This document shows positions 688 through 37,545 of a stretch of 64,000 bases of DNA, in pieces; within the stretch, counting starts at the first letter, position 1, and each line of letters begins with the position of its first letter. Made by a program: the position numbers and the translations under genes. The notes beneath the pieces are model-generated. The model was not told the origin of the DNA. It worked only from the letters and a program-made list of their open reading frames with translations, and did not search any database. This DNA is from a virus: the IMG/VR virus record IMGVR_UViG_3300044712_001062, positions 1 through 64,000 of that record. The stretch is one strand, 5' to 3'.

Positions 688-773
688 TTTATATAAAGTT
701 ACTAACATATTTGTATGTGCACAAGGGCAAAATAAAAAGGAAAGGAACCTTTCTTTTTCGTTTTGTTTAGAGT
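688..773 (+). ncRNA. dispersed hairpin small-RNA unit, copy 1
   Basis: TTTATATA-11nt-ATATTTGTATGTGC, hairpin GGGCAAAAT AAAAAGGAAAG..CTTTCTTTTT CG TTTTGTTT, then AGAGT. Confidence 0.7.
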
Positions 774-824
774 AGTTTTAAATTGTTGTGCGAACTATTT
801 TGAAAAAAGTAAAGGTTTGATTTA

Positions 825-1586
825 TTAGTATTTTTCATGCTTTGCGAATAACTGTTTTGGAATCTTAAATACTGTGTGATCCCAACTGTAATCGCTGCCA
901 TCGACTTTGAATAAAACCCATCCATTGTCTGGTCGTTGTTGACTTTTCAAACCCATGTGGCCATCAAGACCTTTCCAACATGGCGTGTTAATGGTGATTG
1001 ACGAACTTGAACCACTATATGCGAAATTGTGGGTGTGACTTCTTATGAATATATCTGCATCATCACCCTGTAATTTAAGATTGTTGACGAACTGCTGCTG
1101 TGAGTTATAACGATTTCCTGGATTACCACTATATGAAGCGTGATGCTGGATGTTCATTGTGATGTTTTCAAAATCGGCATCTCCAAACCAACCATACCAT
1201 TCACCGCCCATCATTTCGCAGCAAATTTCATCAGCACTTGGATTATGCCCAGTATGATATCCACTACCTTCAGTAAAGATCCACTCACCCCCGCAATCGA
1301 TCATCTTCAAACATTGTCTGGCGATATCACATTGTACAAGGTAATCACTCACCAAAACATCCTTCCCGCGACCTTTATAATTTAGGCCATCAACGATATC
1401 CCCGTTGCAAATTACAGCATCAACATGCCCAATTTGCTTGCACATCCCTGTCCAATAACTCCATACAAATTCCTGTAATTTAGACTGCTTCAATTCCAGA
1501 TCACGATCTTTATGATAATATCGTGGTGGCAAAAGCCCAAACATCGATCCGCAATGTAAATCTGATATTCCAAGTATTTTCATCAA
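825..1586 (-). CDS. calcineurin-like metallophosphoesterase
   Basis: SDLH, NGDIVDG, HH and SHTH metal-binding motifs. Confidence 0.85.
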   Translation of the reverse strand: MMKILGISDLHCGSMFGLLPPRYYHKDRDLELKQSKLQEFVWSYWTGMCKQIGHVDAVICNGDIVDGLNYKGRGKDVLVSDYLVQCDIARQCLKMIDCGGEWIFTEGSGYHTGHNPSADEICCEMMGGEWYGWFGDADFENITMNIQHHASYSGNPGNRYNSQQQFVNNLKLQGDDADIFIRSHTHNFAYSGSSSSITINTPCWKGLDGHMGLKSQQRPDNGWVLFKVDGSDYSWDHTVFKIPKQLFAKHEKY

Positions 1587-1589
1587 GAT

Positions 1590-1838
1590 TCAAACCTCAA
1601 TCCTATGAACTCTTTTTGGATAAGTCCCACCCAATCGAATTTTCAACTTGGAAGATCCCGTGGGCATTCTAGTGATCGAATCCACACCAATTTTATAAAT
1701 ATCCCTAAAATAATCCAGATGATAAACGATATCACTCTTAACTCCATCCTGGACAATACTAACAGTCGCAGTGGAATCTTCCCCTTCATGTTCATAAACA
1801 TCAATGATATATTGAGTGTGTAATGTCATAATAATCAC
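1590..1838 (-). CDS. hypothetical protein
   Basis: 82-aa ORF coupled to both neighbours. Confidence 0.55.
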   Translation of the reverse strand: MIIMTLHTQYIIDVYEHEGEDSTATVSIVQDGVKSDIVYHLDYFRDIYKIGVDSITRMPTGSSKLKIRLGGTYPKRVHRIEV

Positions 1839-2182
1839 ACTATCTCATCATCAACAATCCACAACCACTGGGTTGCGTATTCTGGATATGTTGCGATATT
1901 TCCACCAGCGGTAACAACCTTAAACATCATGCGATACATACCGCTTTCATCGCTCTCACCAGCACCCCACCAATACTCAACAACACCAGTTCCAGCATCT
2001 ACTATGGAACATGGTTGATCATAGATTGTAGGGGTCGTCTCGCCATCCTTAACCATCGTGAACAAAACAGTCTGACCGGTCAAATCGTGGTCAACATTAC
2101 CTTGAGTATCAATATTCCAGTCCATAATTTGATAACTCAACGGAACCGTGTCACCCTTCTTAAATCGCATCGTATAAGTCAT
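1835..2182 (-). CDS. BppU N-terminal-like baseplate/virion protein
   Basis: KKGDT..DLTGQTVLFTM..GVVEY.W...D.SGMY..F.V...TYP pattern; start moved to MTYTM, just downstream of a TATA box. Confidence 0.7.
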   Translation of the reverse strand: MTYTMRFKKGDTVPLSYQIMDWNIDTQGNVDHDLTGQTVLFTMVKDGETTPTIYDQPCSIVDAGTGVVEYWWGAGESDESGMYRMMFKVVTAGGNIATYPEYATQWLWIVDDEIV

Positions 2183-2281
2183 TATATAATAATGAGCGAA
2201 TGAAATATATAAAGTTAACCCCCATGCAATAATGAAAATTGACTGCTGCAAAATAGATTACAAGAAACAACAATGAAAATC

Positions 2282-2365
2282 ACTCTAAACAAAATGAAAG
2301 GAAAAAGGTTTCCCTTTTATCTTGTCCTTTGGGCACATACAAATATATTTTATCCACATATAAAA
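2282..2365 (-). ncRNA. dispersed hairpin small-RNA unit, copy 2
   Basis: minus strand: TTTTATAT-11nt-ATATTTGTATGTGC, hairpin GGACAAGAT..ATTTTGTTT, then AGAGT. Confidence 0.7.
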
Positions 2366-2385
2366 CTAATGTGGGAATATACCAT

Positions 2386-2886
2386 TTACTTTTTCTTACT
2401 TTTAATCAATAACATGTCTACTCTATTGGCCATTTCACGCGCATGAGAACTCATATATTTGTAATCTCTTGCTCTATGCATATACCGAGTGTAATTGAAA
2501 TTTGGATCAAAGTCTAATAATTCTTGGGCTTTCTCGGGATGTAATTGTTGAAATTTAGACCACTCATAGGCGCATTCCTTACCATACTTCAATATTGCTT
2601 TCAATTTTTGATCCCAAGTTTGGAATTGCGATTGTTTTTGAGAAGCTTCCTGGATAGATTTATTTAGTTTTTCTAACCCATGCTTGATGATCATTTTGTC
2701 CAATAACAATTTTTCATTTTCATCAAGATTTAATTCAATAGCAATATTTTTTACATAGGCATTTTTGATCATTTGCCTATTAGTGATGTTTAGATAATTT
2801 CTTAATAGTTTGTCAACTACTTGTTTGGGATCAAGTTGTTTATCTTTTAAGAGTTTCCCAAATTCAGGGCGAATATCAATTTTCAT
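2386..2886 (-). CDS. hypothetical basic protein, possible ribbon-helix-helix-like N-terminus
   Basis: 166-aa ORF; N-terminal strand followed by QVVDKLLRNYL helix. Confidence 0.6.
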   Translation of the reverse strand: MKIDIRPEFGKLLKDKQLDPKQVVDKLLRNYLNITNRQMIKNAYVKNIAIELNLDENEKLLLDKMIIKHGLEKLNKSIQEASQKQSQFQTWDQKLKAILKYGKECAYEWSKFQQLHPEKAQELLDFDPNFNYTRYMHRARDYKYMSSHAREMANRVDMLLIKSKKK

Positions 2887-2935
2887 GATCGGTGATTATT
2901 TTTCAAAATTGAAAGTTTCAAAAGTAATTTTTTTT

Positions 2936-4138
2936 TTATTCGTCAAGGAATATGTCGTTTCCTCGAATTGTAATCATTCCATATCTTTTCATTTCTTCAA
3001 GTTTATCATAGAGTGATTGTGCGGACATCTGAACTTGGAAACATACCGTATTAAGATAATTTCTTGTTATCATTATACGACCATCATCTGTGGTAGTTCC
3101 ATAAACCCTAATCAAATTAATTACTTGTTTAAGATCTGGGCCGGTAATGATATCCCTACGCCATTCGAATTGCTTATTTAATATGTCCATTAACCCTTTG
3201 TCTTGAACATCAAGCATTATACTAGTATCTGCACCATATTTTGCCAAATGCCAACCAAGGATCAGTTTGGCGTATGATGAAATTTCATAAGGTTCAATAT
3301 CAAATTTTTCATAAAGGTGGAATACTGATTCATCATAATCGATATTTTCAATAGAATTAAAACTTGTTGTCCACGTCTTAATGGCATCTTTCATCTCGTG
3401 GATTTGCTTAACGTCGGGTCGTTTATTTCGAGAATCCCAGACAGCCCTACGTAAATCACTTTTCAATTTGGCATCTGGTAAATTCAATAAAAAGCAAATA
3501 CGACGACCCATACCACTGCCCAATTCATATTTTGCAGGCTGAACACCGCCCCACAAAGTACAATATGTTTGATATTCTATATCTCCACCAGCAACAGATT
3601 TGCGAACTTCTCCATGATCAAGGGCTGCCAATAATTGAGACTCCATCTGGCTATTAAATGATTGGCCCATTGCATCAGTAATTCCTTTGAATTCATCCAT
3701 CATCAAAAAGCCTTGGCCATGTGTTTCGAATTTACCTTCTCTTTTTACATAATTACCATGGCTTGGTGTATAAGTTCCAACTAATGATGCTTCATTGACA
3801 TTTTGACACTGAATCATTTCATAATTACAATTGCCGAATATAGAATAGTCATCCATTCCCATATTTTTCAAGTAATATGATTTCATGTATCCAGGAGGAG
3901 CCACAAATATAATATGTAATCGCATATTTGGAATTGCATAAGACTCCCAATAGACCTTTCGGCCTTGATTCATGACATTAAAAGCGTGTATTGCATAGGA
4001 GCAAACATATGGCGGGGCATAAGTTTCATAGGATAAAGTCCCTCTCTGTTCCAGATTATCTAATATCATCTGCATTACATCTGGATTATTGGACACTTTA
4101 CTCATTAAGAAACTCCAACTATACGTTTGACTTATCAT
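2936..4138 (-). CDS. MCM-like AAA+ helicase (ATPase domain plus probable winged helix)
   Basis: HIIFVAPPGYMKS Walker A, ASLVG, FLMMDEF Walker B, LLAALDHG, GRRICF arginine-finger region; start moved to MISQT. Confidence 0.75.
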   Translation of the reverse strand: MISQTYSWSFLMSKVSNNPDVMQMILDNLEQRGTLSYETYAPPYVCSYAIHAFNVMNQGRKVYWESYAIPNMRLHIIFVAPPGYMKSYYLKNMGMDDYSIFGNCNYEMIQCQNVNEASLVGTYTPSHGNYVKREGKFETHGQGFLMMDEFKGITDAMGQSFNSQMESQLLAALDHGEVRKSVAGGDIEYQTYCTLWGGVQPAKYELGSGMGRRICFLLNLPDAKLKSDLRRAVWDSRNKRPDVKQIHEMKDAIKTWTTSFNSIENIDYDESVFHLYEKFDIEPYEISSYAKLILGWHLAKYGADTSIMLDVQDKGLMDILNKQFEWRRDIITGPDLKQVINLIRVYGTTTDDGRIMITRNYLNTVCFQVQMSAQSLYDKLEEMKRYGMITIRGNDIFLDE

Positions 4139-4214
4139 TATATAAAATATGCGGTTATAATTCTCCAAGTAGTTATATACAAATTTGATATAAAGTAAAT
4201 GAAATTTGCATATA

Positions 4215-4559
4215 ATGAATGTATTAATGATTGCAGGACCACCAACATTTACAGATCGTGAAGTCATAGCCGATAACCTAATAGATGCCATGTTATGGGC
4301 AAATCCCTCACAAATAATTACCAGTGATCAGTTAGGTGTTGATGAAATCATAACACAATTAGTCACATCATATACTAATATAAAATTTTCAAAATACTAC
4401 ATATATAAGGATAAATTTGGAAAATCGGCATTACCAATCGCATTATTTGAAATGACCGCAAAAGCCACTCACATATTAATCTTTGATGATAATAAAATGA
4501 CTGACGTTGAATATTTCGCCAATAGAAATGGCTTGATGATTATGAAAGTTAAAGTATAA
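4215..4559 (+). CDS. SLOG-superfamily (YspA/DUF2493-like) protein
   Basis: MIAGP.TFTD.E, IITSD..GVD, KFGKSA, ATHILIFD pattern. Confidence 0.6.
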   Translation: MNVLMIAGPPTFTDREVIADNLIDAMLWANPSQIITSDQLGVDEIITQLVTSYTNIKFSKYYIYKDKFGKSALPIALFEMTAKATHILIFDDNKMTDVEYFANRNGLMIMKVKV

Positions 4560-4587
4560 AACAGTTATCATTTTCTAAATGGTTAAA

Positions 4588-4695
4588 TGAGGGAGCAAAA
4601 CCCAAATAACCAATACTGAACTAGTTGAGAGTATCCCTGGTCAGCGAGGAAATCAATCCTCGAAATCGACAGGTTAAGCACACAACACGCCCGTC
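4588..4695 (-). ncRNA. putative about 108-nt structured RNA with a multi-stem junction
   Basis: GC-rich intergenic segment; stems GGGCG/TGCTC, TAACC/GGTTA, CGAGGA/TCCTCG, GATACT/AGTATT; TTTTATAT box at 4719-4726. Confidence 0.5.
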
Positions 4696-4744
4696 AAAAT
4701 AATATAAAATTTACCAACATATAAAAGAGATGTAACAAAATGTT

Positions 4745-4842
4745 GCGAGGGGGTAGAGATCGTGATTATAGCCCCTCATGTGATGTAATGTCATTATTAG
4801 TTTTAATTCGGGAATAATGAAACTAATTTGTGATCTCTACAC
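4745..4842 (-). ncRNA. putative pseudoknotted RNA of about 100 nt
   Basis: GTAGAGATC/GATCTCTAC (9 bp) crossed by GAGGGG/CCCCTC; ATTAGTTT/AAACTAAT stem; TTTATATA at 4863-4870. Confidence 0.5.
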
Positions 4843-4908
4843 AATAATATATGCTTTTATGTTATATAAATTTTGTCATATTAATGTATGAAAAACTTAA
4901 ACGATCTC

Positions 4909-5595
4909 CTATAGCCAGTCGTTGGATTTTCCAATTAGGATATTTTTAATATTTCGTTCCTTGACTTTACCAATGCCTTGGACTTTAGTTAGATCAGCAA
5001 CATTCGCAATATACGTGAGATCAGTTCCATACATCTTGCGGATATTTGACCATTGAATCATAGTGATGTTTAAAAACCTGGAAATTAATGCATCTAAATT
5101 TCTTTGGGCGACAATATCCAAATTGCCTTCGCAAATTTTCATTCCAACTTTAATGGATCTTTTAACGCCATTGAGGTGATCATTATCTACTAAAACTCTA
5201 ATATTGTAGCGAACCATCACACTGGCAATTATAGAATCGAAAATTTCAGGTTTAATATCAACATGTTTAACTCTTTTCATATAATTACAATATTCAGTTA
5301 TATCACCTGAAACCAATAATATTACCACACTATCAGTTTGATGAGTAGTGAGCCTTGCACATTGCGAGGGAAATCTAGGTTTTTTACCTTTACTGCCCAT
5401 CACTGATCCATATAAATCAGCAACGGTCTTGCGTTCAACCAATACTTTCATTGACCCCTCATTCTCACAGTGGATCAATATATCTCCTTCTTTTAAGGCA
5501 ACTTCCTTGAATTTTATATTTGGAAATTCCTTGATAATTTTCTTCCTGAAGTCTGCTGGTTCACGAGTATCCAATATGACTTCCATGGAAATCAC
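4909..5595 (-). CDS. ERCC4 (XPF/Mus81/Hef-like) structure-specific nuclease with C-terminal HhH
   Basis: ILDTRE, GD..VERKT..DL catalytic motif; VQGIGK HhH motif. Confidence 0.9.
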   Translation of the reverse strand: MISMEVILDTREPADFRKKIIKEFPNIKFKEVALKEGDILIHCENEGSMKVLVERKTVADLYGSVMGSKGKKPRFPSQCARLTTHQTDSVVILLVSGDITEYCNYMKRVKHVDIKPEIFDSIIASVMVRYNIRVLVDNDHLNGVKRSIKVGMKICEGNLDIVAQRNLDALISRFLNITMIQWSNIRKMYGTDLTYIANVADLTKVQGIGKVKERNIKNILIGKSNDWL

Positions 5596-5888
5596 ACCGT
5601 TGTTTCGTTAATAACTCTTCTCAATATTGCCACTCTATTCCAATCGTCCATCCAAGTTGTCCAATAACCATTAGAACGCATCCAAGTGAACCACTTATGA
5701 ACAACTTCTGGAAGTGGATCATCAGGGCTAATAATCAAATCTCCTTTTGGCATATATTTAATGAATTTGCCATTTTCAAAATAGCCATTGATTGAGACAA
5801 AATCATTAACTGGCATATAAAAAGAACGATGAGTTTTAGGATTATTCAACTCACCTGCAAAAATATGAGCAATATAAATATCATCCAT
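5592..5888 (-). CDS. hypothetical protein
   Basis: 98-aa ORF overlapping the nuclease start. Confidence 0.6.
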   Translation of the reverse strand: MDDIYIAHIFAGELNNPKTHRSFYMPVNDFVSINGYFENGKFIKYMPKGDLIISPDDPLPEVVHKWFTWMRSNGYWTTWMDDWNRVAILRRVINETTV

Positions 5889-5914
5889 TATATATAAGTG
5901 GATGGATGTATTAT

Positions 5915-6376
5915 TTAAAGATTTCGATTAAGTTCACTAATATAAGATAAGTATAATTCATTGGGATCCCAAACAACACTACTGGTAATGACTTTGGAAA
6001 TTCCCGCATTAATCATTAATTTAGTGCATAGGAAACATGGCTTTGGAATTATTTCTCTTTGCAATTCAATATCATACCCATATAAATATAATATACAGTT
6101 TCTCGCTCTTGAGCCAGCCTGTAACAAAGCATTCATCTCGCCGTGAATTGAGAAACAAGCCTCATACTGCTTTCCTTGTGGTATGTTCAATTGTTGTCGA
6201 ATACAATTATTCAATTCATTACAATGTTGCATACCTTTTGGATTACCATTGAACCCACCTGAAATTTGATGACGTGTAATTGGATCAACAATCACCGCGC
6301 CATATTTTCTCCTAATACAAGTAGACTGCCTTGCATACTCTTCGGCAATGCCTAAAAAAAGTTGAAGATCGTTCAT
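5915..6376 (-). CDS. dCMP deaminase
   Basis: STC.RRKYGAVIV, GFNG.P.G..HC, HGEMNAL, PCFLC. Confidence 0.92.
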   Translation of the reverse strand: MNDLQLFLGIAEEYARQSTCIRRKYGAVIVDPITRHQISGGFNGNPKGMQHCNELNNCIRQQLNIPQGKQYEACFSIHGEMNALLQAGSRARNCILYLYGYDIELQREIIPKPCFLCTKLMINAGISKVITSSVVWDPNELYLSYISELNRNL

Positions 6377-6429
6377 TGGAAATAATATAATACTTGAAAA
6401 TATAAAAAGTAGATGATCAAAAAAATTAA

Positions 6430-6960
6430 TTATTCGATTTGCTCATCAATCCAATCATAAATCTTAAATCGATCAACTTGTTCATCATTAAAGTCAACAG
6501 GCTTCTTAAGCATATCAGCATTCCAATTTTCATTACCTGGAATATAACTGGGATGGAATTGCAATGGCCAATATGATGAACTGTTAATATTGACGCCCAT
6601 CAATCGATTATAGAAGCACAACTTCCTATGCCACCATGGATCAGTTGCAATTTTATACATGAACCACATCATGAGATTGGTAAACGCCAAGACATTTTTA
6701 TCATTAGGATCTTGTCCATTGGAATATCTCGTCATCCCAATAACATCCCTAATCAAAAATAAATCAACTGACTGATAATACTTTTCATATTTTTCACGAG
6801 ACCAGGTGCACGCATCCAATTCCTGTAGAATCTGATCACTAATTTGTATGCGTGATAAAATGTCAACCACGGGATCTTCTGGCATTTGTGGTATGGTATC
6901 TTGCATTGCAGGCTCACCACTTGGTTTTGGCCCTGTTACATTTGACGGTTCATTATCCAT
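6430..6960 (-). CDS. hypothetical protein
   Basis: 176-aa ORF, GAGGT Shine-Dalgarno. Confidence 0.7.
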   Translation of the reverse strand: MDNEPSNVTGPKPSGEPAMQDTIPQMPEDPVVDILSRIQISDQILQELDACTWSREKYEKYYQSVDLFLIRDVIGMTRYSNGQDPNDKNVLAFTNLMMWFMYKIATDPWWHRKLCFYNRLMGVNINSSSYWPLQFHPSYIPGNENWNADMLKKPVDFNDEQVDRFKIYDWIDEQIE

Positions 6961-6995
6961 ATAAAATTACCTCTAAAAATTTTAAAATTTTAAAA

Positions 6996-7679
6996 TTAAA
7001 AATTTCCTTTGAACATTGCATTTGCGAATTTTCCGCGATATGCTGGAAACCACATGCGAGGATCATATGATTCATCAAATTGCCAACTATTAGCATTAGC
7101 AGTAATAAATATTAGTGCCATATTGATTGATCTGCGCATGAACATATCAGTTTTATATTTCCTAATAACATACCTGAATACCCAATCAATCCAGAAATGC
7201 GTGCGTTTCCTCTTATCATTTTCATACCACCAACGACGAACCCCCTCAATGAGATTGCTATGCTCTTGATCTATGGCAGTAATTTTTTGAAATCTATCAC
7301 GATTATTGACAACGAATTGTATAACTCCACCCATTCGTTCAAAATACGCACTATCATTACGAAAAACAGCCAATGTGAATTGCGCTAATCTCATGAATCG
7401 ATTATTAATTTTATCTTTATCTTCACGAGTCATATTTGCTGGATGATAACCATCACAAACTTTAAAGTAATTGGCCATTAGAGCATTAACAAATTCTTCA
7501 TTCAGGATCTGTCCATTATCGCCTGCTTCATGTCTTGCCAATCGTTCATCAAATGGTAAATTGTCCAACAAACTTTCATCATTACCATCACTATCAATGA
7601 AGCGCCGTAACATGTCCTTCGTGGTGATGTGAAAGTCATAGGCTTCTTTCTTTACCCACCTACCATCAGATAACTTCAA
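6996..7679 (-). CDS. hypothetical protein, possibly a distant paralog of 6430-6960
   Basis: 227-aa ORF with GGTGA SD and TTG start; aromatic-rich K.TD..N.NS..P C-terminal segment resembles the neighbour. Confidence 0.65.
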   Translation of the reverse strand: MKLSDGRWVKKEAYDFHITTKDMLRRFIDSDGNDESLLDNLPFDERLARHEAGDNGQILNEEFVNALMANYFKVCDGYHPANMTREDKDKINNRFMRLAQFTLAVFRNDSAYFERMGGVIQFVVNNRDRFQKITAIDQEHSNLIEGVRRWWYENDKRKRTHFWIDWVFRYVIRKYKTDMFMRRSINMALIFITANANSWQFDESYDPRMWFPAYRGKFANAMFKGNF

Positions 7680-7782
7680 ATATATTTCACCACTTATATA
7701 TTAATGTGGAAGTATTTAAAGGTAATGGTATAGTTTATATAATAAAAAATGTTAAGTTAAAAAAATAGAAATAGTTCAATGA

Positions 7783-8070
7783 TCATTCAATGTTATACTT
7801 ATCCATTGTTCTTCGTAATTTAAAGTCCATGGACATTTCAACATCATAAGGATCGATATTGTAAATTTCCTTAATTTGATTCATGATAAGCATTACATCG
7901 CTAAATTCCTCAACTATTTCATGATCAGTTTTAGTAATGCCATTTTCATAATTTAATATTGCTTTGTAGAGTTCGCCAACTTCTTCTCCTAATTTCATAA
8001 ACTGTTGATATTTTCCAAAGTGCTCAACAATCTTGGTAAGATCAGTTCTCATTAACATATTGTTATCCAT
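7783..8070 (-). CDS. MazG-like NTP pyrophosphohydrolase
   Basis: KLGEEVGEL and EEFSDV motifs. Confidence 0.85.
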   Translation of the reverse strand: MDNNMLMRTDLTKIVEHFGKYQQFMKLGEEVGELYKAILNYENGITKTDHEIVEEFSDVMLIMNQIKEIYNIDPYDVEMSMDFKLRRTMDKYNIE

Positions 8071-8284
8071 TAAATTTCAAAATATATAAGTTCAGTAGTC
8101 TCGTAAATTTTTATCAATTAGATCTCGAATAATCAGTTCGATTTGAACATCATTTCGTTCAGAAACTCTCTTGGCATGATCATACAAACGAAAGAGATCA
8201 TCACGGTATTCATCACCATGGTAATGATAGAGTGCCATAGTGATAATGTATATAAACTAATATATAAAAGTAATGTTATTGAAG

Positions 8285-8653
8285 TTACAATAGTCCAAAT
8301 ATCTTGGCAATTACAAAACCAACTGCAGTGAGAATTCCAATGATAGCCCCACCCAATTTAGTCCCCTCGGTTTTACCTTCACTAACACCTTCAGCCTTAA
8401 TAGTAGCAATGTCTACTCGTTGTTCATTATCATTGCATAACATCTTTTCGATCAATTGAGTTTTCATTTCGCTTTGAGCAATATGAACTTCATGAATTTC
8501 ACGACGAACTTCTTGTAATTCCTGGCGATCAATCTTACGATCTTCGTTTTGTAAATCGTAATTTTTATCTATTTTCTTGTCTAAATTTTTAATTAACTCA
8601 AGAATCAATGCACGCCATTCAGCAGGTGATATACTATCTGGATTGTCAGTCAT
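8285..8653 (-). CDS. coiled-coil protein with C-terminal membrane anchor (holin/XhlA-like architecture)
   Basis: heptad coiled coil followed by LGGAIIGILTAVGFVIAKIFGLL. Confidence 0.6.
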   Translation of the reverse strand: MTDNPDSISPAEWRALILELIKNLDKKIDKNYDLQNEDRKIDRQELQEVRREIHEVHIAQSEMKTQLIEKMLCNDNEQRVDIATIKAEGVSEGKTEGTKLGGAIIGILTAVGFVIAKIFGLL

Positions 8654-8659
8654 TTTATT

Positions 8660-9349
8660 TCACACAAAGTTGGCCATTTCATTATGAGTCTGGGTAAGTT
8701 GCTCAATAGTTGATTTGAGTTCCTCGGCACTTGCTCTCAATTCCTGATTATAACTTTCCAATTCAATTATTTTATTTTCCAATTCAGTTTCAAGTTCAAA
8801 GCGATAAAGGACATGCCCAAGATGTTTTCCCAATGTCCTTAACATATCGCAAATTTCAGGATCCACTGATGCGTGATTTTCATAAGCAGCAAGATTTATA
8901 CAACCCCTCACTCTATTGTCAAAAATAATTGGTATGGATAAAAAAGTTTCAATATCGCCCAATAGCATTGATACTCGTTGATTAACCTTGGAGTAGTTCG
9001 TCAAATATATTACTTTATTAAAATGAAAAAGGTCATGCAACTCTGGGCGATCATTGCACAAATATTTTAATTCTTCTTTTAAATTTCCAGGTATAAAACG
9101 AGTTGCCACAACTTTAATATTTTTATCCTTAACAAGATATATTGAGCCAATATCAAAGTTTACCAATTCTACACAAGAATTCAACAAATTTTGTATTAAT
9201 TCCTTCTGACTATCACTTTCATTTGCCTTAATGATAATCGTATTAAAGGTTCGCAATCTCTTGCGCTCTTTATCCATTATTGTTTCAGTAGAGTTTAATT
9301 TATGTGTATAGGACTCTAGTGCTGAAATCTGATCTGCCAAGGCTACCAT
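8660..9349 (-). CDS. stand-alone GAF-domain protein with signalling coiled coil
   Basis: FDIGSIYLV..FLSIPIIFDNRVRGCINLA GAF signature; C-terminal ELESYNQELRASAEELK helix; no kinase domain. Confidence 0.8.
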   Translation of the reverse strand: MVALADQISALESYTHKLNSTETIMDKERKRLRTFNTIIIKANESDSQKELIQNLLNSCVELVNFDIGSIYLVKDKNIKVVATRFIPGNLKEELKYLCNDRPELHDLFHFNKVIYLTNYSKVNQRVSMLLGDIETFLSIPIIFDNRVRGCINLAAYENHASVDPEICDMLRTLGKHLGHVLYRFELETELENKIIELESYNQELRASAEELKSTIEQLTQTHNEMANFV

Positions 9350-9414
9350 AAAATTATCGAAATAGTGAATGCTTACTTTATATATAGGGTGTGGATATAT
9401 CGATCAACCATAAA

Positions 9415-9506
9415 TTTATATATAGTTAAGGATATATTTGTATGTGCAGCGGGACAATCGAAAAGGAGAAAGAGAAATCTTTTTTCTTCTTTGTTTGTTT
9501 CAAGGT
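9415..9506 (+). ncRNA. dispersed hairpin small-RNA unit, copy 3
   Basis: TTTATATA-11nt-ATATTTGTATGTGC, hairpin closed by a GAAA tetraloop (AAAGA GAAA TCTTT), then TTTGTTTC AAGGT. Confidence 0.65.
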
Positions 9507-9898
9507 GTTCTTTTATTGTCGTTAATTTCTAATTGGACTATTTTGCCATTGACATCACTGTAAAATACATTGCCAATTTCCATTTCAAGGATTAAACTCA
9601 TGCAGTGTATACAAGGTTTTGAATTGCAAAGTTTATTGGGACCGACTCTCACTACCAACAGTGATGCACCTTTAAGATCTTCACGCGAGGCTCTCACTAT
9701 GGCATCACATTCAGCATGTAATAGTAACTTGGGATAATACTTCATCAATGCTGATGGCACTGTCCTCGTCTTGTTAAATCCACGCGATATGACCCTGCCA
9801 CGCTTGTCAAATACGACAGCCCCATGTTTGAACCTTTGTAATGTTGAATCATTCGCGGATTTTACGGCAAGTGAAATTAAGTGATCATTTGGAAACAT
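9500..9898 (-). CDS. second cytidine/deoxycytidylate deaminase-family protein
   Basis: HGAVV, HAECDAI, SKPCIHC zinc motifs. Confidence 0.85.
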   Translation of the reverse strand: MFPNDHLISLAVKSANDSTLQRFKHGAVVFDKRGRVISRGFNKTRTVPSALMKYYPKLLLHAECDAIVRASREDLKGASLLVVRVGPNKLCNSKPCIHCMSLILEMEIGNVFYSDVNGKIVQLEINDNKRTP

Positions 9899-9950
9899 AA
9901 TAAAATATTAGTCCTTGGTATAAAAATAAGTAGCGTAAAATTTTTCTATT

Positions 9951-10334
9951 TTAGATCCTTGGAGTAACATTAATGGTATATGATTCGCCATCGAAATATT
10001 CCAGGCAAAACATCGCTGCGGTATCTGGATTATATCCCTTACAACTGAAAATGTCAATATATGCAACGCCATTAACTTCGTCAAAGTGAGCAGTTATGCA
10101 TGAAGTTTGGATGAGTTGCACAACAGAATAGCCTTCGAGATTTCCCTGACCAAACCTTACAATGAGTGGTTCACCATAACTATCCATCGCAATGTAATCA
10201 ACCAAATCAATTATCCATTCATAAAGGTAATTTTCATCACTAATTAGTGTAACATCCACCCCGTAAATGTCCACTGATGTGCTCATACCCCACCATTCCT
10301 CTTCATTGAACTTTGCAATATAATCGATCATCAC
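9951..10334 (-). CDS. speD: S-adenosylmethionine decarboxylase proenzyme
   Basis: GYSVVQLIQTSCITAHF self-cleavage region and AYIDIFSCK. Confidence 0.85.
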   Translation of the reverse strand: MMIDYIAKFNEEEWWGMSTSVDIYGVDVTLISDENYLYEWIIDLVDYIAMDSYGEPLIVRFGQGNLEGYSVVQLIQTSCITAHFDEVNGVAYIDIFSCKGYNPDTAAMFCLEYFDGESYTINVTPRI

Positions 10335-10567
10335 AAGTTGTGATCATTTGCAGTATAAAAAGATTTAGAAATTAATATTTGTACGCTTGGAATTCAATGC
10401 ATATAAATTACAAATTAGTAAGATGATAAATATACAATTCCACGTTACAAATGAAAAGGGAAATAGCATTATATTGGCAATTTGAATGATGAAAAAAAGT
10501 TGAATTATGGAGTATGTTGGGGCAATTAGACCATTTATGAAAAGTTGAATGTAAAATGGTATGGTTT

Positions 10568-10840
10568 TCATTTGAACAGCCCGCAAATACATTTCGAAGT
10601 TGTTGTATAGTCTATGCATGGACAAATATTATCATCAGTTTTTTGAATTTTACAAGGGCAATATGTTTTTCCAAACCTCTTAAAATTCATTTCAAGACCC
10701 ATAATAATTTTAATTACTTTTGCACCATTATCATTCAATGCGTATTTTTTAACAGCCTCTTCAATTCTTGGATGTTTCAAAATTGGATAAAGTTCTCCAT
10801 CCAATTCAACAGTCGTTGGGTTAGTATTTTCTATAGGCAT
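10568..10840 (-). CDS. ferredoxin:thioredoxin/disulfide reductase catalytic-type protein
   Basis: YCPC..ICPC..CICGLF 4Fe-4S/disulfide motif; directly downstream of nrdD. Confidence 0.85.
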   Translation of the reverse strand: MPIENTNPTTVELDGELYPILKHPRIEEAVKKYALNDNGAKVIKIIMGLEMNFKRFGKTYCPCKIQKTDDNICPCIDYTTTSKCICGLFK

Positions 10841-12836: not shown

Positions 12837-13051
12837 ATACCCAACTCCTTCATTGCAGATGTTTTATCAAAATACTGATCGTTTATTTTTACAATAGGGG
12901 CTTCAACTAATGTAACCCCATCTAATAGAAGTTCTGCATATACATCTGGATCTTCCAAATCCAGACTTTTATAGTTTATATTTTTTAATTCAAATAAATG
13001 TTTAAGTTCATCACAATTTGGACATACTGGAAGTGAATATACCAATATCAT
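12830..13051 (-). CDS. nrdH: NrdH-like glutaredoxin
   Basis: CPNC active site, cis-Pro EAPIV; coupled to nrdD. Confidence 0.88.
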   Translation of the reverse strand: MILVYSLPVCPNCDELKHLFELKNINYKSLDLEDPDVYAELLLDGVTLVEAPIVKINDQYFDKTSAMKELGIC

Positions 13052-13344
13052 ACATCATACCTAACGCGGTCAAGAAGTTCTTGCGTTTTCCCTTTAGCCC
13101 AAGCATCTACCGGGGAATAGTAACCTGTTACTCTAGAGATCGGGCTGACATCATGACTACCACATTCTGGACAAACAAACCCACCACATTTTTCACAAAT
13201 TTTAATCCCATCAACAACCCCACAACTGCAACTCCCAGAGTCACATTCGCACATCTCAACAACAGCACCCTTACATTCAGGACATTTTCCTTCTATAAGG
13301 TCAGAATCTTGTAGAATGTATCTACACTTCTCACACTTATGCAT
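13048..13344 (-). CDS. separate NrdD C-terminal zinc-ribbon/glycyl-radical subunit
   Basis: multiple CxxC, CPECGSHDV.PISRVTGYY..W.KGK.QEL.DR; start moved to MHKCEKC behind its own TATA box. Confidence 0.88.
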   Translation of the reverse strand: MHKCEKCRYILQDSDLIEGKCPECKGAVVEMCECDSGSCSCGVVDGIKICEKCGGFVCPECGSHDVSPISRVTGYYSPVDAWAKGKTQELLDRVRYDV

Positions 13345-13420
13345 AAGGATAAGTATATTATTGCTTATATATAAGGCAATCGCATCGCATAAAAAAGTCC
13401 CAATTAAACATCTGAAAATC

Positions 13421-13505
13421 ACTCTAAACAAAACAAAGAAAGAAGAAATTCTTCCTCTTCGTAATGTCCATGGGCACATACAAATAGTGCTTGACTATTT
13501 ATAAA
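13421..13505 (-). ncRNA. dispersed hairpin small-RNA unit, copy 4
   Basis: minus strand: TTTATAAA-10nt-CTATTTGTATGTGC, hairpin GGACA..GAAGAGGAAG/CTTCTTTCTTTG..TGTTT, then AGAGT. Confidence 0.7.
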
Positions 13506-13512
13506 TCTATTG

Positions 13513-13854
13513 TTAGAATTTATATAAAAGTTTATCAAAGATCCAATTGAGGAATCGTTTATGGATTGGTAGTTTTAGAGGTTCCTCATTGAATTTCCAA
13601 ATAGAATTATCATCGCCAATTGCTTTATCTATACAAATTGGTTGAGTATGCCTATCCCAAACTTTACTATCAAATGAACCTTTGAATTTTTCAATTGTTC
13701 CATGATCATATGCTTCAAGCATATTTGATACCCATGCACCTTTTTTGAAGTATCCAGCATTAACCATATCTTCATCAATTACCTGATCAATGATAATTCG
13801 ATCATTATTAACTTCATCATTTTTATTTTCTATCCACGCGCCTTTAACAAACAT
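13513..13854 (-). CDS. hypothetical protein with two KGAW motifs
   Basis: MFVKGAWIEN and YFKKGAWVSN. Confidence 0.6.
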   Translation of the reverse strand: MFVKGAWIENKNDEVNNDRIIIDQVIDEDMVNAGYFKKGAWVSNMLEAYDHGTIEKFKGSFDSKVWDRHTQPICIDKAIGDDNSIWKFNEEPLKLPIHKRFLNWIFDKLLYKF

Positions 13855-14026
13855 ATTAGCGACCTTTTATAATTCTAATTCCGCGTTCATTTAATTTTCC
13901 AATAGTAAATATTCCAAGTGTATGTATCCATTCAAAGAATATACCATCAACTATACCAATTTTATATGGTATACATTTATTAAGTTTAATCCAATATTTT
14001 CCAAATAATAACATAATTAAATCCTC

Positions 14027-34221: not shown

Positions 34222-35424
34222 TTAGAGCAATCCTTTGTCGCGAAGTCTTTGAAGCACTGCATCTTTACCGGCATCACGGTTACGGATGACTCCCCAAAGT
34301 TCGTAATACTGGATCATTTCATCCTTATCGTTTTTGAACTGCATCTTACGTCCAACAACAACAACTTCATCACCAATGTTCAGTTCTTCAACATCTTCAA
34401 CAACCGGCAGATAATTAGACTTCATTCCAATTCCGCCGATCAGGTCATCACTATTAATTCTGATTCGTGCTGAAAGACCATCGCCCTCAATCTTCTTCTG
34501 CTGGATAGAACCTGAAGTCGCAAATACAGTTCTTGGATCGGCATCCATCAAAGCATTGAGGTCCATCCAGTGTTCAGTAGTCTGAAGCACTCGCATTGCC
34601 GTTTCATATGCCTTGTCGTAAACACCCTTATCTTCATGACCAAGATCAAATATACTCCAGGTCGTCCCATACTTATTTGCATAGAGAATGCTCTTGCGAC
34701 CAACCTTTGGAACATGACGGAAATCCTTGTTATCTCTATCCCATGGCAAGTTCGCAATTACAAAATCTTCCTTATTTTCATCAACAGTCTTAACAATCTT
34801 ACCATCTTTACCGACAGCACACTGTTCAACTGCAGTGATGATCATTGGGACTTTAACACGAAGAACGGTCTCAATTTCCTCGCCAAACTTCTTATTCTCC
34901 TTGGTTACCGTTGCACCACTTTCATCCTTGTAAGTTGTCTCACGCTCGCTTTCCAGGGGAATTGGATAATCCTTACCGTCCTTTGACTTACCAATCTTGA
35001 TTTTACCACTGGTGATCCACTGGTTAATCATTTCTAGATTTGGAGCATGATTCTTCTCTACATACTCACCAGTTTCGACATCCTTCTCTTTCCAAGTTCC
35101 ACCATTCAAATATCTGTAATACCACTTGCGAATGTCATTCTTCTTGTAGTCGTTCTTATCTTCATACTTGGAAACACCAAGAACAATTGCATATAGCCCC
35201 TTGTTCTTACCTTTCTCAAATTCACTCTTCGCGTATTCAAAGCCACTTGGTCTGAACAAACTTGACACATTGGCAGTTACAATTTTCTCAACTTCAGCAT
35301 CGATGTGTTCAGCATCATAAAACGTGGCCAATTCCACCTTAATTTTTGCTGAATATTCTTCGATCTTCTTCTTAACTACAGCCTCATCAACTGTATATCT
35401 CTCGGCAATTGCTTTATAATCCAT
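34222..35424 (-). CDS. probable single-stranded DNA-binding (OB-fold) protein
   Basis: C-terminal OB-like LNIGDEVVVVGR..YELWGVI; distinct codon usage; upstream of the Sak4-like and exonuclease genes. Confidence 0.55.
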   Translation of the reverse strand: MDYKAIAERYTVDEAVVKKKIEEYSAKIKVELATFYDAEHIDAEVEKIVTANVSSLFRPSGFEYAKSEFEKGKNKGLYAIVLGVSKYEDKNDYKKNDIRKWYYRYLNGGTWKEKDVETGEYVEKNHAPNLEMINQWITSGKIKIGKSKDGKDYPIPLESERETTYKDESGATVTKENKKFGEEIETVLRVKVPMIITAVEQCAVGKDGKIVKTVDENKEDFVIANLPWDRDNKDFRHVPKVGRKSILYANKYGTTWSIFDLGHEDKGVYDKAYETAMRVLQTTEHWMDLNALMDADPRTVFATSGSIQQKKIEGDGLSARIRINSDDLIGGIGMKSNYLPVVEDVEELNIGDEVVVVGRKMQFKNDKDEMIQYYELWGVIRNRDAGKDAVLQRLRDKGLL

Positions 35425-35585
35425 GATATAGATCCTTAACTTTCTCGATTTCTTACATGCACAATTGAATGTGCGAGGTTTTTAAAACCCAATTTAGTTT
35501 GTGGGTATTACTAATGTTTGTGTTGAAGTTATAAAAAGATGATCATAGATGCCCATTAAAAAGTATAAAATTGTTAAAATTTAAC

Positions 35586-36171
35586 CTAATATTTCTCGAA
35601 CCCGCATACCTTACCAGTTCGATCCACCATTTTTCCCTTCAACGAACAATATGATATAGTGATCAATTTACCACACCTCGAAATATATTCCATGCCAACC
35701 CTATCTATATACCCACAATCACCACAACATGAAGGCCCAACATATTGATCGCTTTGAAATTCAACGCCAATTTGCTCAATCATATTCCACCTATTTTTCA
35801 ATCTTAATTCCAGTATATCGGTAATTTTCAATTCCTTTCATTGCTTCATCAGTTCGCTTCATATAATAAGCCTTGTTGAAAACCTTAACCCTAAACAGCC
35901 AGTGTTCTTGCCTAACCATAATTTCATACAAATAGTGCCTGGCTAAATGTCTTGTTATACCAAACTTATCTATAAAATCAGTAGTTTGAAGCACCCAGTC
36001 CCATTCCCACTCATTATGATAAAAATCCATAAATCTCTGATACAAACTTCCGTCAAAAAAACAGCAAGGAACCAACTCAACTCTTCGTTTCTTACACGAA
36101 CCATCTTCCTTTATATACTTGCAGAACTTACATTGTGGTTCCACGATATTAGTATTTAAGTTCTTCTTCAT
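35586..36171 (-). other. two Cys-containing ORFs (35586-35831; 35791-36171 with possible winged HTH)
   Basis: CxxC motifs; TTDFIDKFGITRHLARHYL helix-turn-helix-like segment. Confidence 0.55.
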
Positions 36172-36286
36172 TACCTTTATATATCCAATTAATAGTATTT
36201 AAAGTTTACCATCCAATTTATATATAGTAAATGAATTTGACACTTTTATTTAAAGATTGTGCAATGTAATGACCTTAAACACTACA

Positions 36287-36383
36287 TTTTTATACAAGTT
36301 GTTACATATTTGTATGTGCCACAAGGTAACAAGACTACTAAAGCAAGGAGTGGGATCCTTTCTTTATTTGTTTTGTTTAGAGT
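36287..36383 (+). ncRNA. dispersed hairpin small-RNA unit, copy 7 (longer stem)
   Basis: TTTTTATA-11nt-ATATTTGTATGTGC, AACAAGAC/GTTTTGTT, TAAAG/CTTTA, AAGGA/TCCTT, then TAGAGT. Confidence 0.7.
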
Positions 36384-36429
36384 ATGTGGTAATCGACTTG
36401 TTTTCCCGAAATTAACCATGTAGATTACA

Positions 36430-36502
36430 TTCTCCATATGGGCGTGGGGTTTTCCAAGTTTCAAAAAAGTTTGTATATGGGCTTTGAGTTCTCCACATGG
36501 GC
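36430..36502. repeat. three direct repeats with consensus TTCTCCAYATGGGC
   Basis: 36430-36443, 36470-36482 (degenerate), 36489-36502. Confidence 0.55.
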
Positions 36503-36517
36503 ATTATATTTTAGATA

Positions 36518-37378
36518 TTATATTTTTCTTTTTTGGCTTTTGATATTTTTTTGTTTGCGAAGATCGATCATTGTGACATTTGTTGGCGTGGTGAAAGTTT
36601 TGAAACCCCTGCTACACACCGTATGGAAGTAGTTTCGGCTAACCTTGACACTGGGAAACTGCTCAACAAACGCATGGTATATGGCATATTCGACAACTTC
36701 ATCTATATCATATTCAATGCCGAAGTCCCGGACAAAGTCCCTTATGCGTTCGCTCTTGAAGCCTGGGCCATTATCCTCGATGGCCAATGAAGCGAGAAAT
36801 TTGTAAAATTCATCAAGGCGCTCCAAAATTATACACCTCGAAATATAAAAATTGAACCTATATTAATCATCTATAGGAAAGTGCTCATTACCTATATATA
36901 AATGTTTGGTAACAATGTTACACGATTATTTACAATTTGTGAGTAAAAAATGAAAAATTTAAATGGTCAATCTGATCATTTCACTCATGCCGAATTTTGT
37001 GTCGTGGTGATATGAGCAAACTTTAGCATTGAATGAGATTTTATCCCCAGGTTTGATATCATTAAGCATTAAATATGAAAGTTGATTGACATTTTGAATG
37101 TAGGTGTGATTAGTCACATATTCACCATCGATCATCAAGTCGCCCACCAGTGCATATTTTGAATTGTTACGGTAATGGACACAACCCTTTTTAATGAATC
37201 GCCCAGTGCAATTTACCCAACCCTTATCAAGGAATTTCTTGAGGTATTCACGGCGCTTAAACGAATCATTAGTCACACTTTCATGAGATCCACAGACACA
37301 CCCGTTAATTTGAAATTCATCCTCGATGGTAGTTTTTCCACATTTTACACATTTGACAATTGGTATGCCTTTAATCAT
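36518..37378 (-). other. two hypothetical ORFs (36518-36826; 36959-37378 zinc ribbon plus OB-like)
   Basis: GAGGTG SD; CxxC..CxC; DIKPGDKISFNAKVCSY. Confidence 0.55.
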
Positions 37379-37459
37379 GAATGAAATGTTAGCAGCAAAA
37401 CTATTTAAGTTTAACTATTTGTATGCGGCAAAAGTTTCCTAACAAAAGATCCCAGAAAT

Positions 37460-37545
37460 ACTCTAAACAAAACGAAAGAAAAGAAATTTCTTCTTTCTGT
37501 CTTGTTCGTGGGGTACATACAAATATATCTTAACTTATATAAAAA
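37460..37545 (-). ncRNA. dispersed hairpin small-RNA unit, copy 8
   Basis: minus strand: TTTTTATA-11nt-ATATTTGTATGTAC, GAACAAGAC/GTTTTGTTT, GAAAGAAGAA/TTCTTTTCTTTC, then AGAGT. Confidence 0.7.

Follow-up and report, generated by a model that had tools for sequence, protein, structure and literature searches.

Convergent promoter-hairpin units in an archaeal tailed virus: candidate small-RNA genes around accessory-gene pockets

The window analyzed here is the first 64 kb of the 135,061-bp genome of an archaeal tailed virus (IMG/VR record IMGVR_UViG_3300044712_001062), and it contains eight copies of a small promoter-hairpin unit together with four gene pockets that lie between them (Table 1). 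The original prediction had placed eight such units here and all of them are present. A search for the box ATATTTGTATGTGC at zero or one mismatch returned exactly eight matches in the window, five of them exact and three with one mismatch, all within these units, against a chance expectation of about 0.02 calculated from the pattern length. Each copy carries a TATA box upstream and a hairpin with a TTTAGAGT-like foot downstream. When the whole window was scanned with the covariance model R1, no full-length copy besides the eight was identified.

Table 1. Positions of the promoter-hairpin units and of the gene pockets between partner units in the window.
Feature	Position	Strand	Landmarks	R1 score (bits)	Neighbors or gene content	Counterparts
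Unit 1	688-801	+	TATA 688-695; box 707-720; hairpin; foot to 773; T-runs 776-779 and 798-801	79.7	Faces 3' end of gene 825-1586(-)	
Unit 2, partner of unit 1	2250-2365	-	Box 2333-2346; foot from 2282; T-runs 2276-2279 and 2250-2253	75.7	About 20 nt past stop of gene 2386-2886(-); next gene's TATA 31 nt before ATG at 2182	
Unit 3	9415-9544	+	Box 9434-9447; long hairpin, GAAA loop; foot TTTCAAGGT to 9506; T-runs 9511-9514 and 9541-9544	47.2	Overlaps stop of dCMP-deaminase gene 9500-9898(-)	
Unit 4, partner of unit 3	13391-13505	-	Box 13474-13487 (1 mismatch); foot from 13421; T6 run 13391-13396	71.8	Next gene's TATA 29 nt before ATG	
Unit 5	21566-21658	+	Box 21585-21598 (1 mismatch); foot TTCAGAGT to 21650; T-run 21655-21658	71.9		
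Unit 6, partner of unit 5	23097-23198	-	Box 23166-23179; foot from 23113	74.0	TATA 18 nt past PolB stop at 23216	
Unit 7	36287-36404	+	Box 36306-36319; 78-nt unit; foot to 36383; T-run 36401-36404	48.4		G001 55186+; G003 37030+
Unit 8, partner of unit 7	37430-37545	-	Box 37513-37526 (GTAC variant); foot from 37460	79.2	TATA abuts stop of gene 37535-37798(-)	G001 56453-; G003 38306-
Pocket 1 (units 1/2)	802-2249	-			Metallophosphatase (825-1586), 82-aa ORF, 115-138-aa ORF	G001, bounded by units 10183+ and 12255-
Pocket 2 (units 3/4)	9545-13390	-			dCMP deaminase, AdoMet decarboxylase, 86-aa ORF, NrdD, glutaredoxin, separate NrdD C-terminal piece	NrdD/AdoMetDC pocket in G003, bounded by units 10622+ and 15336-
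Pocket 3 (units 5/6)	21659-23096	-			288-aa ORF without assigned function, 55-aa ORF; just downstream of PolB	
Pocket 4 (units 7/8)	36405-37429	-			Conserved 102-aa gene (36518-36826), non-conserved 139-aa gene (36959-37378)	

Model R1 recovered all 17 copies in the genome (7 on the plus and 10 on the minus strand), and it detected further members in G001-G006, six related IMG/VR virus records, as well as in the metagenome contig L021. The original reading, which is partly supported overall, had missed the nine copies beyond the window as well as the pairing rule described below. The family, which it did not recognize, is absent from Rfam, where no match was found at gathering scores and the E-value mode gave only matches far below threshold. 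Together these results support a real, uncatalogued family. The promoters had also been called archaeal, and ordinary genes of the genome carry TATA-like boxes as well (74/233, compared with 10.7% of random windows, with a peak 29-30 nt before the ATG), supporting the conclusion that the source genome is that of a virus with archaeal-type promoters.

The promoter class of the units is composed of a BRE-like CAATAcA element, TTTATATA, a semi-conserved spacer containing AGTTAAGAT, and the initiator box ATATTTGTATGTGC. The distance from the first base of the TATA-like hexamer to the G of GTGC or GTAC was 25-28 nt in 29 of 29 units measured, two L021 copies among the total of 31 being left unscored. 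Within one virus the box upstream of the start is uniform, but it differs between viruses, and the promoter region is better conserved than the transcribed part. A DNA-level role or a virus-specific transcription factor would account for this pattern as well as an RNA gene would. A run of four or more T residues is present in the 3' arm of all 31 units, and a further run lies within 45 nt in 23 of them. Between the foot and the second T-run lies a variable stretch, with GRACT(N)TTTT as its boundary in roughly half of the copies. By eye, the ACT(A)TTTT tail described earlier as frequent was found in five of the eight window copies and as a near-variant in two, and is absent from one. The fixed spacing agrees with the earlier proposal of a start set by the TATA box, while the accompanying length estimate of 80-100 nt appears too narrow; an RNA beginning at GTGC would probably measure about 55-100 nt. 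A start at this position would also mean that most of the supposedly invariant box is promoter DNA and lies outside the RNA.

The hairpin of each unit spans 20-28 bp, with a purine 5' arm, a U-rich 3' arm and the foot UUUAGAGU, and the GAAA tetraloop reported for the third copy was recovered in its MFE fold. Folding of the sense strand was more stable than that of the antisense strand in 16 of the 17 genome copies, the exception being 23179-. MFE hairpins of 19 units contained 71 G.U pairs versus 5 A.C single mismatches. In a fold blind to base identity beyond purine and pyrimidine, applied to 31 units, G.U again exceeded A.C (165 vs 61, p=3e-12) and C was found preferentially opposite G (odds ratio 2.9, p=1e-6). 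These data bear out the claim that many pairs form only as G.U in the promoter-sense strand. The claim that pairing is kept while the stem sequence changes withstood shuffling of the 3' half only (mean z of -2.9; at most 9/300 shuffles as stable in 16/19 units), but covariation was much less decisive. A column shuffle of the MAFFT alignment A3 was not significant (87.3% paired vs 86.0%, 99/500), since purine and U-rich arms can pair in almost any register. Alignment A5, which was fitted to the model and has 4 antisense echo rows among its 36, gave 90.2% vs 79.9% paired (0/500), with double changes in 17 of 19 pairs. Part of the apparent conservation of the stem is thus compositional. Counterpart units in other viruses differ in both stem sequence and stem length, and all 17 that were displayed fold. 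The stems are near-perfect, with neither a pocket nor a K-turn, which together with the Rfam result argues against the H/ACA-like role that had been suggested.

Every unit is intergenic and located at an operon border. Each plus-strand copy is followed by a minus-strand copy 127-3915 bp further on (P=0.006 from shuffles of 7+/10-), and these seven gaps are all smaller than the nine other gaps (5574-29770 bp), a separation with an exact rank probability of 1/11440 by our arithmetic. Empty or near-empty pairs occur at 104217+/104485- (the 127-bp gap), in L021, and at 5181+/5335- in G001. Convergent pairs are also found in the relatives, and three of them, those flanking the metallophosphatase, NrdD and 102-aa pockets, have counterparts at matching gene positions in G001 and/or G003. 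Sense copies begin 0-21 nt past the stop codon of the preceding gene; for backward-facing copies, the next gene on the far side starts 53-339 nt away. The structural module contains three single copies, which face backwards between plus-strand genes. Consistent with the original prediction, plus-strand copies face convergent minus-strand genes, and the genes that follow minus-strand copies have a TATA-like box of their own 29-31 nt before the ATG (4/4). Its further point, that the units are unlikely to be ordinary leaders, agrees with their appearance as stand-alone, self-promoted elements.

Our preferred explanation, which we hold tentatively, is that the units are autonomous, self-terminating small hairpin-RNA genes placed tail-to-tail as fences around pockets of accessory genes. 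Their own promoter class would start transcription at the G residues of GTGC, and the predicted transcript would consist of a short 5' leader (GCC(C)AA), the hairpin, held in part by G.U pairs, and the foot. Termination at T-runs within the 3' arm or 3-35 nt past it would release a member of a small non-coding hairpin RNA family. Because only the base of the stem and its flanks are conserved, we infer that the foot is the part read by a protein partner; no candidate for this partner was identified. The upper stem would need only to pair and differs between copies, a divergence that may leave the repeats too short for recombination. If the RNA acted purely in trans, the conserved convergent pairing would have no explanation. 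With the tail-to-tail order, read-through from a strong promoter would meet the partner unit and spare the long core operons, and the insulated pocket between partners could be filled by accessory genes with their own promoters. The three backward-facing single copies weaken the fencing idea, and the mini-gene model does not predict the small, non-random step in GC skew at the units.

An unlikely but appreciable alternative is that the units act in cis as insulators at operon borders and the short RNA is a by-product, making them a functional archaeal counterpart of the PeSL cassettes and of the HF2 intergenic repeats. The strongly bound promoter complex and the hairpin with its T-run would halt polymerases coming from neighboring operons and feed a divergent neighboring promoter. 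The border positions, the short distances to flanking stop codons and gene starts, the T-runs within the 3' arm and the strong conservation of the promoter are all in line with such punctuation, as is the retention of position and orientation in relatives, which is also described for the HF2 repeats (PMC8707807). However, a promoter followed by a terminator is pointless for gene expression, and the order is opposite to that in PeSL cassettes as described in PMC2839356, where transcription from upstream is stopped by the stem-loop and then resumes from the promoter. Furthermore, T-runs in the reverse orientation look weak in most units inspected by eye, only the unit at 707 having T5+T4, and the excess of G.U suggests that the sense transcript, or the sense single strand, is under selection. 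Transcription-primed replication, as at phage T4 oriF/oriG, is improbable in our judgment. The purine-rich transcript would stay on its pyrimidine template, forming an R-loop, while the displaced sense strand folds into the hairpin; viral RNase HI would trim the RNA for extension by PolB, and copies on both strands would prime both. The minimal T4 origins described in PMC3016281 are about 100 bp, with a promoter and a downstream unwinding element, and viral RNase H probably processes their R-loops. The unit likewise has about 100 bp, comprising a promoter and some 60 bp of transcribed purine/pyrimidine tract, and the genome encodes PolB, a UvrD-like helicase and RNase HI (79043-79396). G.T wobble in a displaced DNA strand would explain the strand bias equally well. 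The genome gave no match to four primase Pfam families, but this counts for little, as many ORFs are without a family and a host primase could serve. GC skew of the sense strand increases across the units, from the upstream to the downstream side (mean +0.11, 14/17 positive; a step this extreme arose in 0.3% of random sets at 1 kb and in 1.9% at 3 kb), in a test confounded by gene content and overlapping windows, and no unit lies at the main minimum of the cumulative skew, near 57 kb. An arrangement in convergent pairs separated by 127-3915 bp does not match that of an origin, the G+C content of the units (0.29-0.40) is not below that of the genome (0.36) and so marks no distinct unwinding element, and the U-run ends would form weak rU:dA hybrids.

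The original prediction had also raised a scaffold with a variable 3' guide, in which the hairpin would carry a 20-35-nt tail targeting nucleic acid of the host or a rival virus. This now seems very unlikely. Variability of the tail and its GRACT(N)TTTT boundary in about half of the copies would suit a guide, but a search of the virus's own genome with the tails gave no significant match (best E-value 0.01), the scaffold is itself variable, unlike that of known guide RNAs, and no effector gene was recognized. A MITE match had been named as an outcome that would speak against an RNA family. Inverted pairs 0.25-4 kb apart, some free of cargo, do resemble the terminal inverted repeats of MITE-like or cargo-carrying transposons, but this reading is largely refuted and we give it hardly any credence. 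Target-site duplications are absent (direct matches in the outer flanks are no longer than 4-8 nt, against a mean of 5.4 in controls), partner units resemble each other no more than non-partners do (0.18 vs 0.18), and the interior is never common to two copies. Moreover, pairs occupy matching positions in viruses whose PolB proteins are only 45-61% identical, and no empty-site or inverted variant was seen in the only sequencing run containing the genome's DNA, a DNA run. It is just as implausible that the units serve as 5' UTRs of downstream genes or as leaderless mRNAs encoding peptides from the ATG in the box. This ATG is near the predicted start and 17/17 frames begin MC or MY, but the ORFs range from 4 to 59 aa with no common frame or end, and the box ATG is missing from the G004 and G005 units. 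The leader version fails as well, since 7/17 copies point away from any gene and separate promoters follow the sense copies.

Among known systems, the PeSL (promoter-early stem-loop) cassettes of T4-like phages (PMC2839356, PMC4122927) are likewise small, dispersed intergenic cassettes of large tailed-virus genomes. Each pairs a stem-loop with a strong promoter of host type, they border accessory genes, and the parts that are conserved are short enough for linkers. As described there, PeSL promoters are of the sigma-70 type and drive the next ORF, and the cassettes are direct repeats that recombine into deletions and mini-circles. In contrast, the viral units have an archaeal promoter with the hairpin downstream and transcribed from it, their neighboring copies are inverted (convergent) with stems that vary, and no recombination product was seen in the one DNA run. 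The Class I/II intergenic repeats of halovirus HF2 and other haloferacalesviruses also belong to archaeal tailed viruses, combine a TATA box with a conserved start-site motif, and are found nowhere else in the genome (PMC8707807). They are 29-58 bp promoters driving long transcripts of downstream genes, sections 3.1 and 3.7 of PMC8707807 do not describe a transcribed hairpin, a T-run or convergent pairing, and they have no sequence similarity to the units. The T4 origins share the class-specific promoter, the downstream transcribed segment and the viral RNase H gene, and as PMC3016281 describes them they are a handful, their unwinding element is A+T-rich, and they lack a conserved hairpin. The viral units differ from them in having 17 copies, convergent pairs, no extra A+T richness and a selected hairpin.

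The stable-RNA promoters of methanogens, said to have been characterized by Wich et al. in 1986, reportedly carry TTTATATA as box A and TGC at the start. The units resemble this arrangement, with the TTTATATA box about 25 nt before the TGC at the presumed start. The two tRNA genes of the virus lack the box of the units.

The eight promoter-hairpin units of the original prediction stand: the 14-mer box, searched with at most one mismatch, occurs 8 times in the window and each time inside one of them. Nine more true units with the box lie in the rest of the genome (G000), giving 17 that make up about 1.5% of its 135 kb, and two extra loose box matches lack the remainder of the unit. Unit anatomy is constant across copies. 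Each unit has a BRE-like CAATAcA, a TTTATATA box, a semi-conserved spacer, the 14-mer box, C/A-rich nucleotides, a purine arm, a loop, a pyrimidine arm, the foot GTTTTGTTTAGAGT and T-runs, in this order. In all 29 units scored, the first base of the TATA hexamer lies 25-28 nt before the G of GTGC, a distance that, with the usual archaeal spacing, places the predicted start at GTGC. Thus the near-invariant box is real, but most of it would be promoter DNA and not RNA. A covariance model of the family (R1) was built from 11 copies with a hand-set structure on MAFFT alignment A3, because RNAalifold on MAFFT alignment A2 gave a poor structure. The genome scan proposed originally was run with R1, which recovered 17 of 17 genome copies plus two units on L021, a 1,365-bp metagenome contig (E 2e-15 to 2e-4); its only other hits in the genome were antisense echoes of the same hairpins.

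The claim that stem pairing is kept while stem sequence varies was upheld by some tests and not by another. Column shuffling of the MAFFT alignment was not significant (87.3% versus 86.0% paired, 99/500), since pairing between a purine arm and a U-rich arm hardly depends on the register. A specific fold does find support in stricter tests. When only the 3' half was shuffled the mean z was -2.9, and in 16 of 19 units no more than 9 of 300 shuffles were as stable. Furthermore, units at matching positions in different viruses differ in stem sequence and length, and all fold. In a fold that was blind to base identity, C stood opposite G above chance (odds ratio 2.9, p=1e-6) and 165 G.U were found versus 61 A.C (p=3e-12). 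The sense fold was also better than the antisense fold in 16 of 17 copies, in agreement with the G.U pairs noted originally in the sense strand; this strand bias suits an RNA and, just as well, a sense DNA strand that is displaced. Of 19 pairs, 17 show double changes in an alignment of 36 R1 hits that was fitted to the model, and 0 shuffles reached the observed scores; that alignment leans towards structure and includes 4 antisense echoes.

Orientations along the genome run +-+-+-+-+-+---+--, each plus copy being followed by a minus copy (P=0.006, shuffles of 7 plus and 10 minus copies). The seven +- gaps measure 127-3915 bp and the nine remaining gaps 5.6-29.8 kb, and neighbours closer than 4 kb are all inverted. 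From the +- order and the short +- gaps we conclude that the units form convergent, tail-to-tail pairs, and this strict pairing is a rule that every explanation has to satisfy. The pocket between two partners can hold no gene or one 60-aa ORF; other pairs enclose accessory genes, among them a metallophosphatase, a set comprising dCMP deaminase, AdoMet decarboxylase, NrdD and glutaredoxin, and ORFs annotated without function.

Pairs recur on L021 and in three related virus records, and a fourth record, G004, has foot 9-mer matches alone (see table). For seven G000 units, a unit also stands between the corresponding genes of G001, G003 or both, and common pockets are the metallophosphatase pocket with G001, the NrdD pocket with G003 and that of a 102-aa gene with both. 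At one site G001 has a pair and G000 only the minus copy. G001 and G002 are two parts of a single virus that overlap by 37,662 bp at 99.99% identity. Within one virus the box has a uniform sequence upstream of the start, and this sequence differs from virus to virus. Common to the clade are GTGCC, the stem base and the foot TTTTGTT(A/T)(T/A)GAGT, and the family persists among viruses with polymerase identities of only ~41-61%. The R1 scan detected no unit in G007, G008 (38% PolB identity) or G010 and gave a weak signal in G009, which may reflect the limits of R1. Pattern scans returned 8 loci in viral contigs, all chance; 22 in metagenomes, 1 of them real (L021); and 6 in genome contigs, all chance matches in bacterial genomes and therefore no clue to the host.

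The record is a single virus record of 135,061 bp with 36% G+C, the window being its first 64 kb, and is classed by IMG/VR as linear and 83% complete. Its ends share a repeat of ~190 bp with one mismatch, and a 134,917-bp circularly permuted contig of the same sequence is present in one DNA run of a rhizosphere metagenome, the only sequencing run with this DNA and probably its source; no RNA run is listed with it. Together these suggest that the genome is circular or terminally redundant. A TATA-like hexamer precedes 74 of 233 crude ORFs and is present in 10.7% of random windows; its distance to the ATG peaks at 29-30 nt, and this distribution is the archaeal pattern. The closest match of the family-B DNA polymerase (PolB) among named phage records is to haloarchaeal tailed viruses (~25% identity), and PolB is 41-72% identical to polymerases on contigs of 60-136 kb. 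The closest of these is P0002 (72%), encoded on a 133-kb contig. As single queries, PolB and P0002 each found no match among viral contigs; an alignment query gave the relatives.

In addition to PolB, the window encodes a UvrD-like helicase, an anaerobic ribonucleotide reductase, thymidylate synthase, two distinct dCMP deaminases, an ERCC4 nuclease, a PD-(D/E)XK nuclease, an AAA_24 ATPase, methyltransferases and glycosyltransferases. The reductase appears split, with its C-terminal glycyl-radical part on a separate upstream ORF and the glutaredoxin gene between the two. Several PolB proteins of the same clade (P0004, P0005, P0006, P0013, P0014 and others) have lengths of 920-1180 aa and contain intein and LAGLIDADG Pfam domains; that of G000 has 764 aa and neither. 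A 400-aa ORF in the replication module is conserved in G001 and G003 (36-41% identity). Checked as a possible hidden primase, it had no Pfam, PHROG or PDB sequence match, and its AlphaFold model was unusable (pLDDT 45.5). Genes lie on the minus strand to ~83 kb and on the plus strand beyond. Near 57 kb, where there is no unit and genes are still on the minus strand, a negative GC skew gives way to a strongly positive one (up to +0.37), and the skew flips back near 85 kb.

Coordinates of features in G000 (genome positions, identical to window positions up to 64,000) and in related records
Record	Feature	Position	Strand
G000	End repeat	1-190 and 134870-135061	
G000	dCMP/cytidine deaminase, outside pocket 2	5915-6376	-
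G000	dCMP/cytidine deaminase, inside pocket 2	9500-9898	-
G000	Anaerobic ribonucleotide reductase, whole	10821-13340	-
G000	Main NrdD ORF (Pfam NRDD positions 1-513)	10821-12836	-
G000	C-terminal glycyl-radical ORF (NRDD positions 508-562)	13048-13340	-
G000	Thymidylate synthase	15254-16003	
G000	Loose box matches	18602 and 117515	
G000	400-aa ORF	34222-35424	-
G000	First GC-skew flip	~56000-60000	
G000	Extra foot locus (= L155:1203-1383)	78745-78925	
G000	Foot 9-mers at the extra locus	78798 and 78852	+
G000	Second GC-skew flip	84000-90000	
G000	Unit pair with no gene between	104217/104485	+/-
G001	Unit pair	5181/5335	+/-
G001	Unit pair	10183/12255	+/-
G001	Unit pair	55186/56453	+/-
G003	Unit pair	10622/15336	+/-
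G003	Unit pair	37030/38306	+/-
G006	Unit pair	8497/9766	+/-
G004	Foot 9-mer matches alone	107039 and 109843	+ and -

Several readings of the units were rejected. No Rfam 15 family reached its gathering score anywhere in the window, as the original prediction had anticipated for an unrecognised RNA. In E-value mode, run on units and pairs, the best match had 38 bits versus a gathering score of 180 and was a miRNA-precursor model that covered a whole convergent pair as one long hairpin; the family was likewise not found in full-text literature searches. Ordinary leaders were rightly doubted: each gene that follows one of the window's four minus copies has its own TATA-like box, 29-31 nt in front of the ATG, and seven copies are directed away from any gene. 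A micro-ORF is rejected, since frames opened by the ATG of the box vary from 4 to 59 codons and do not share an end, and more distant relatives lack this ATG. The units are not a MITE or TIR transposon either. No target-site duplication was found (flank direct matches of 4, 8, 5, 5, 5, 5 and 5 nt versus 5.4 +/- 1.1 in controls), partners resemble each other no more than non-partners do, the gene sets inside the pairs are unrelated, and pairs are syntenic across diverged viruses. The suggested H/ACA-like RNA fails because the stems are near-continuous with single mismatches only and no snoRNA-type Rfam match came near threshold; an archaeal H/ACA sRNA would need a pseudouridylation pocket with K-turn and ACA box, and a box C/D sRNA its C/D boxes and a terminal stem, and the units show neither set. 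Hairpins and tails have no match beyond chance elsewhere in the genome, which argues against an antisense regulator of genes of this virus. A triplex of the U-rich tail with the purine arm would need tails that mirror the 3' arm, and on inspection by eye they do not; reverse-strand T-runs, also judged by eye, are too weak in most units for a bidirectional terminator. Viral tRNA promoters are without the box.

Most simply, the units are genes for a small RNA, a reading that we favour tentatively because it joins a strong conserved promoter, a strand-specifically selected hairpin ending in T-runs and a separate promoter for the next gene. The conserved foot would then be a recognition surface for a putative partner, tail-to-tail placement would confine read-through, and accessory genes could accumulate in the insulated pockets between partners. 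It is rather unlikely that the units act instead as cis insulators whose short RNA is a by-product. Less likely still is that the transcript primes DNA synthesis as an R-loop, for which the nearest parallel is the R-loop origins of T4 (PMC3016281). An RNase HI gene is present, four primase families gave no match, and there is a modest, weak skew step at the units, all of which would suit such priming. However, the geometry is convergent and the main skew minimum has no unit nearby. Moreover, in the account of the T4 origin given there, the promoter is followed by a distinctly A+T-rich unwinding element and a persistent RNA:DNA hybrid serves as primer, whereas the units have no such element (G+C 0.29-0.40 versus 0.36 for the genome). 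In the boldest form of this priming idea, which is improbable, the units are dispersed RNA-primed replication starts. A class-specific promoter would make a purine-rich RNA that stays on the template as an R-loop, the displaced strand would fold into the hairpin, RNase HI would trim the RNA and PolB would extend it. If true, a whole clade of large archaeal tailed viruses has no primase of its own and starts replication on both strands from ~10-17 primers made by transcription.

Two known kinds of viral element resemble the units. In the descriptions of PeSL, the promoter/stem-loop cassettes of T4-like phages (PMC2839356, PMC4122927), a strong sigma-70-like early promoter drives the next ORF, the stem-loop ends upstream transcription and copies are in direct orientation. 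In contrast, the units have BRE/TATA elements at 25-28 nt from GTGC, the promoter precedes the hairpin, the next genes are served by a TATA of their own, and close neighbours are inverted. Recombination between PeSL copies is described as giving indels or mini-circles. Comparison of the probable source run with window 1-14500 returned the source contig only, with no variant and no real joints; both apparent joints came from alignments between different unit copies of that contig. Halovirus HF2 has intergenic repeats that bear promoters, and these, as described in PMC8707807, share with the units a repeated intergenic TATA and a start-site motif unique to the repeats (the box, at no more than one mismatch, is found only in units), and position and orientation kept among related viruses. 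HF2 repeats drive downstream genes, whereas here the layout argues against this for the 7 backward-facing copies. The family is best filed with the dispersed viral promoter-plus-stem-loop cassettes, as a variant within that group, and as an uncatalogued RNA family.

To our knowledge, very little is known of the non-coding RNAs and transcription signals of archaeal tailed viruses. The units are a conserved multi-copy element of precise anatomy and could serve as a ready-made strong promoter/terminator module for archaeal genetics. They offer a test case for termination of the archaeal polymerase at a hairpin with U-tracts, for whether viruses fence 'safe pockets' where new genes accumulate and, on the replication-start reading, for whether archaeal viruses can prime replication by transcription.

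Outside the window, a locus near 78.8 kb holds the only two non-unit copies of the foot 9-mer TGTTTAGAG, plus a GTATGTGC. In G004 and G005 a simple 9-mer test found no clusters of their respective foot 9-mers outside units, and thus no counterpart of the locus by that test. In G000 a 16-bp terminal stem closes the locus and a TTTAAATA box is set for minus-strand transcription. The predicted minus-strand RNA would be antisense to the family foot, with AUGAAGA...CUGA near its ends, and the locus may represent a partner RNA or else a mosaic of units that has decayed.
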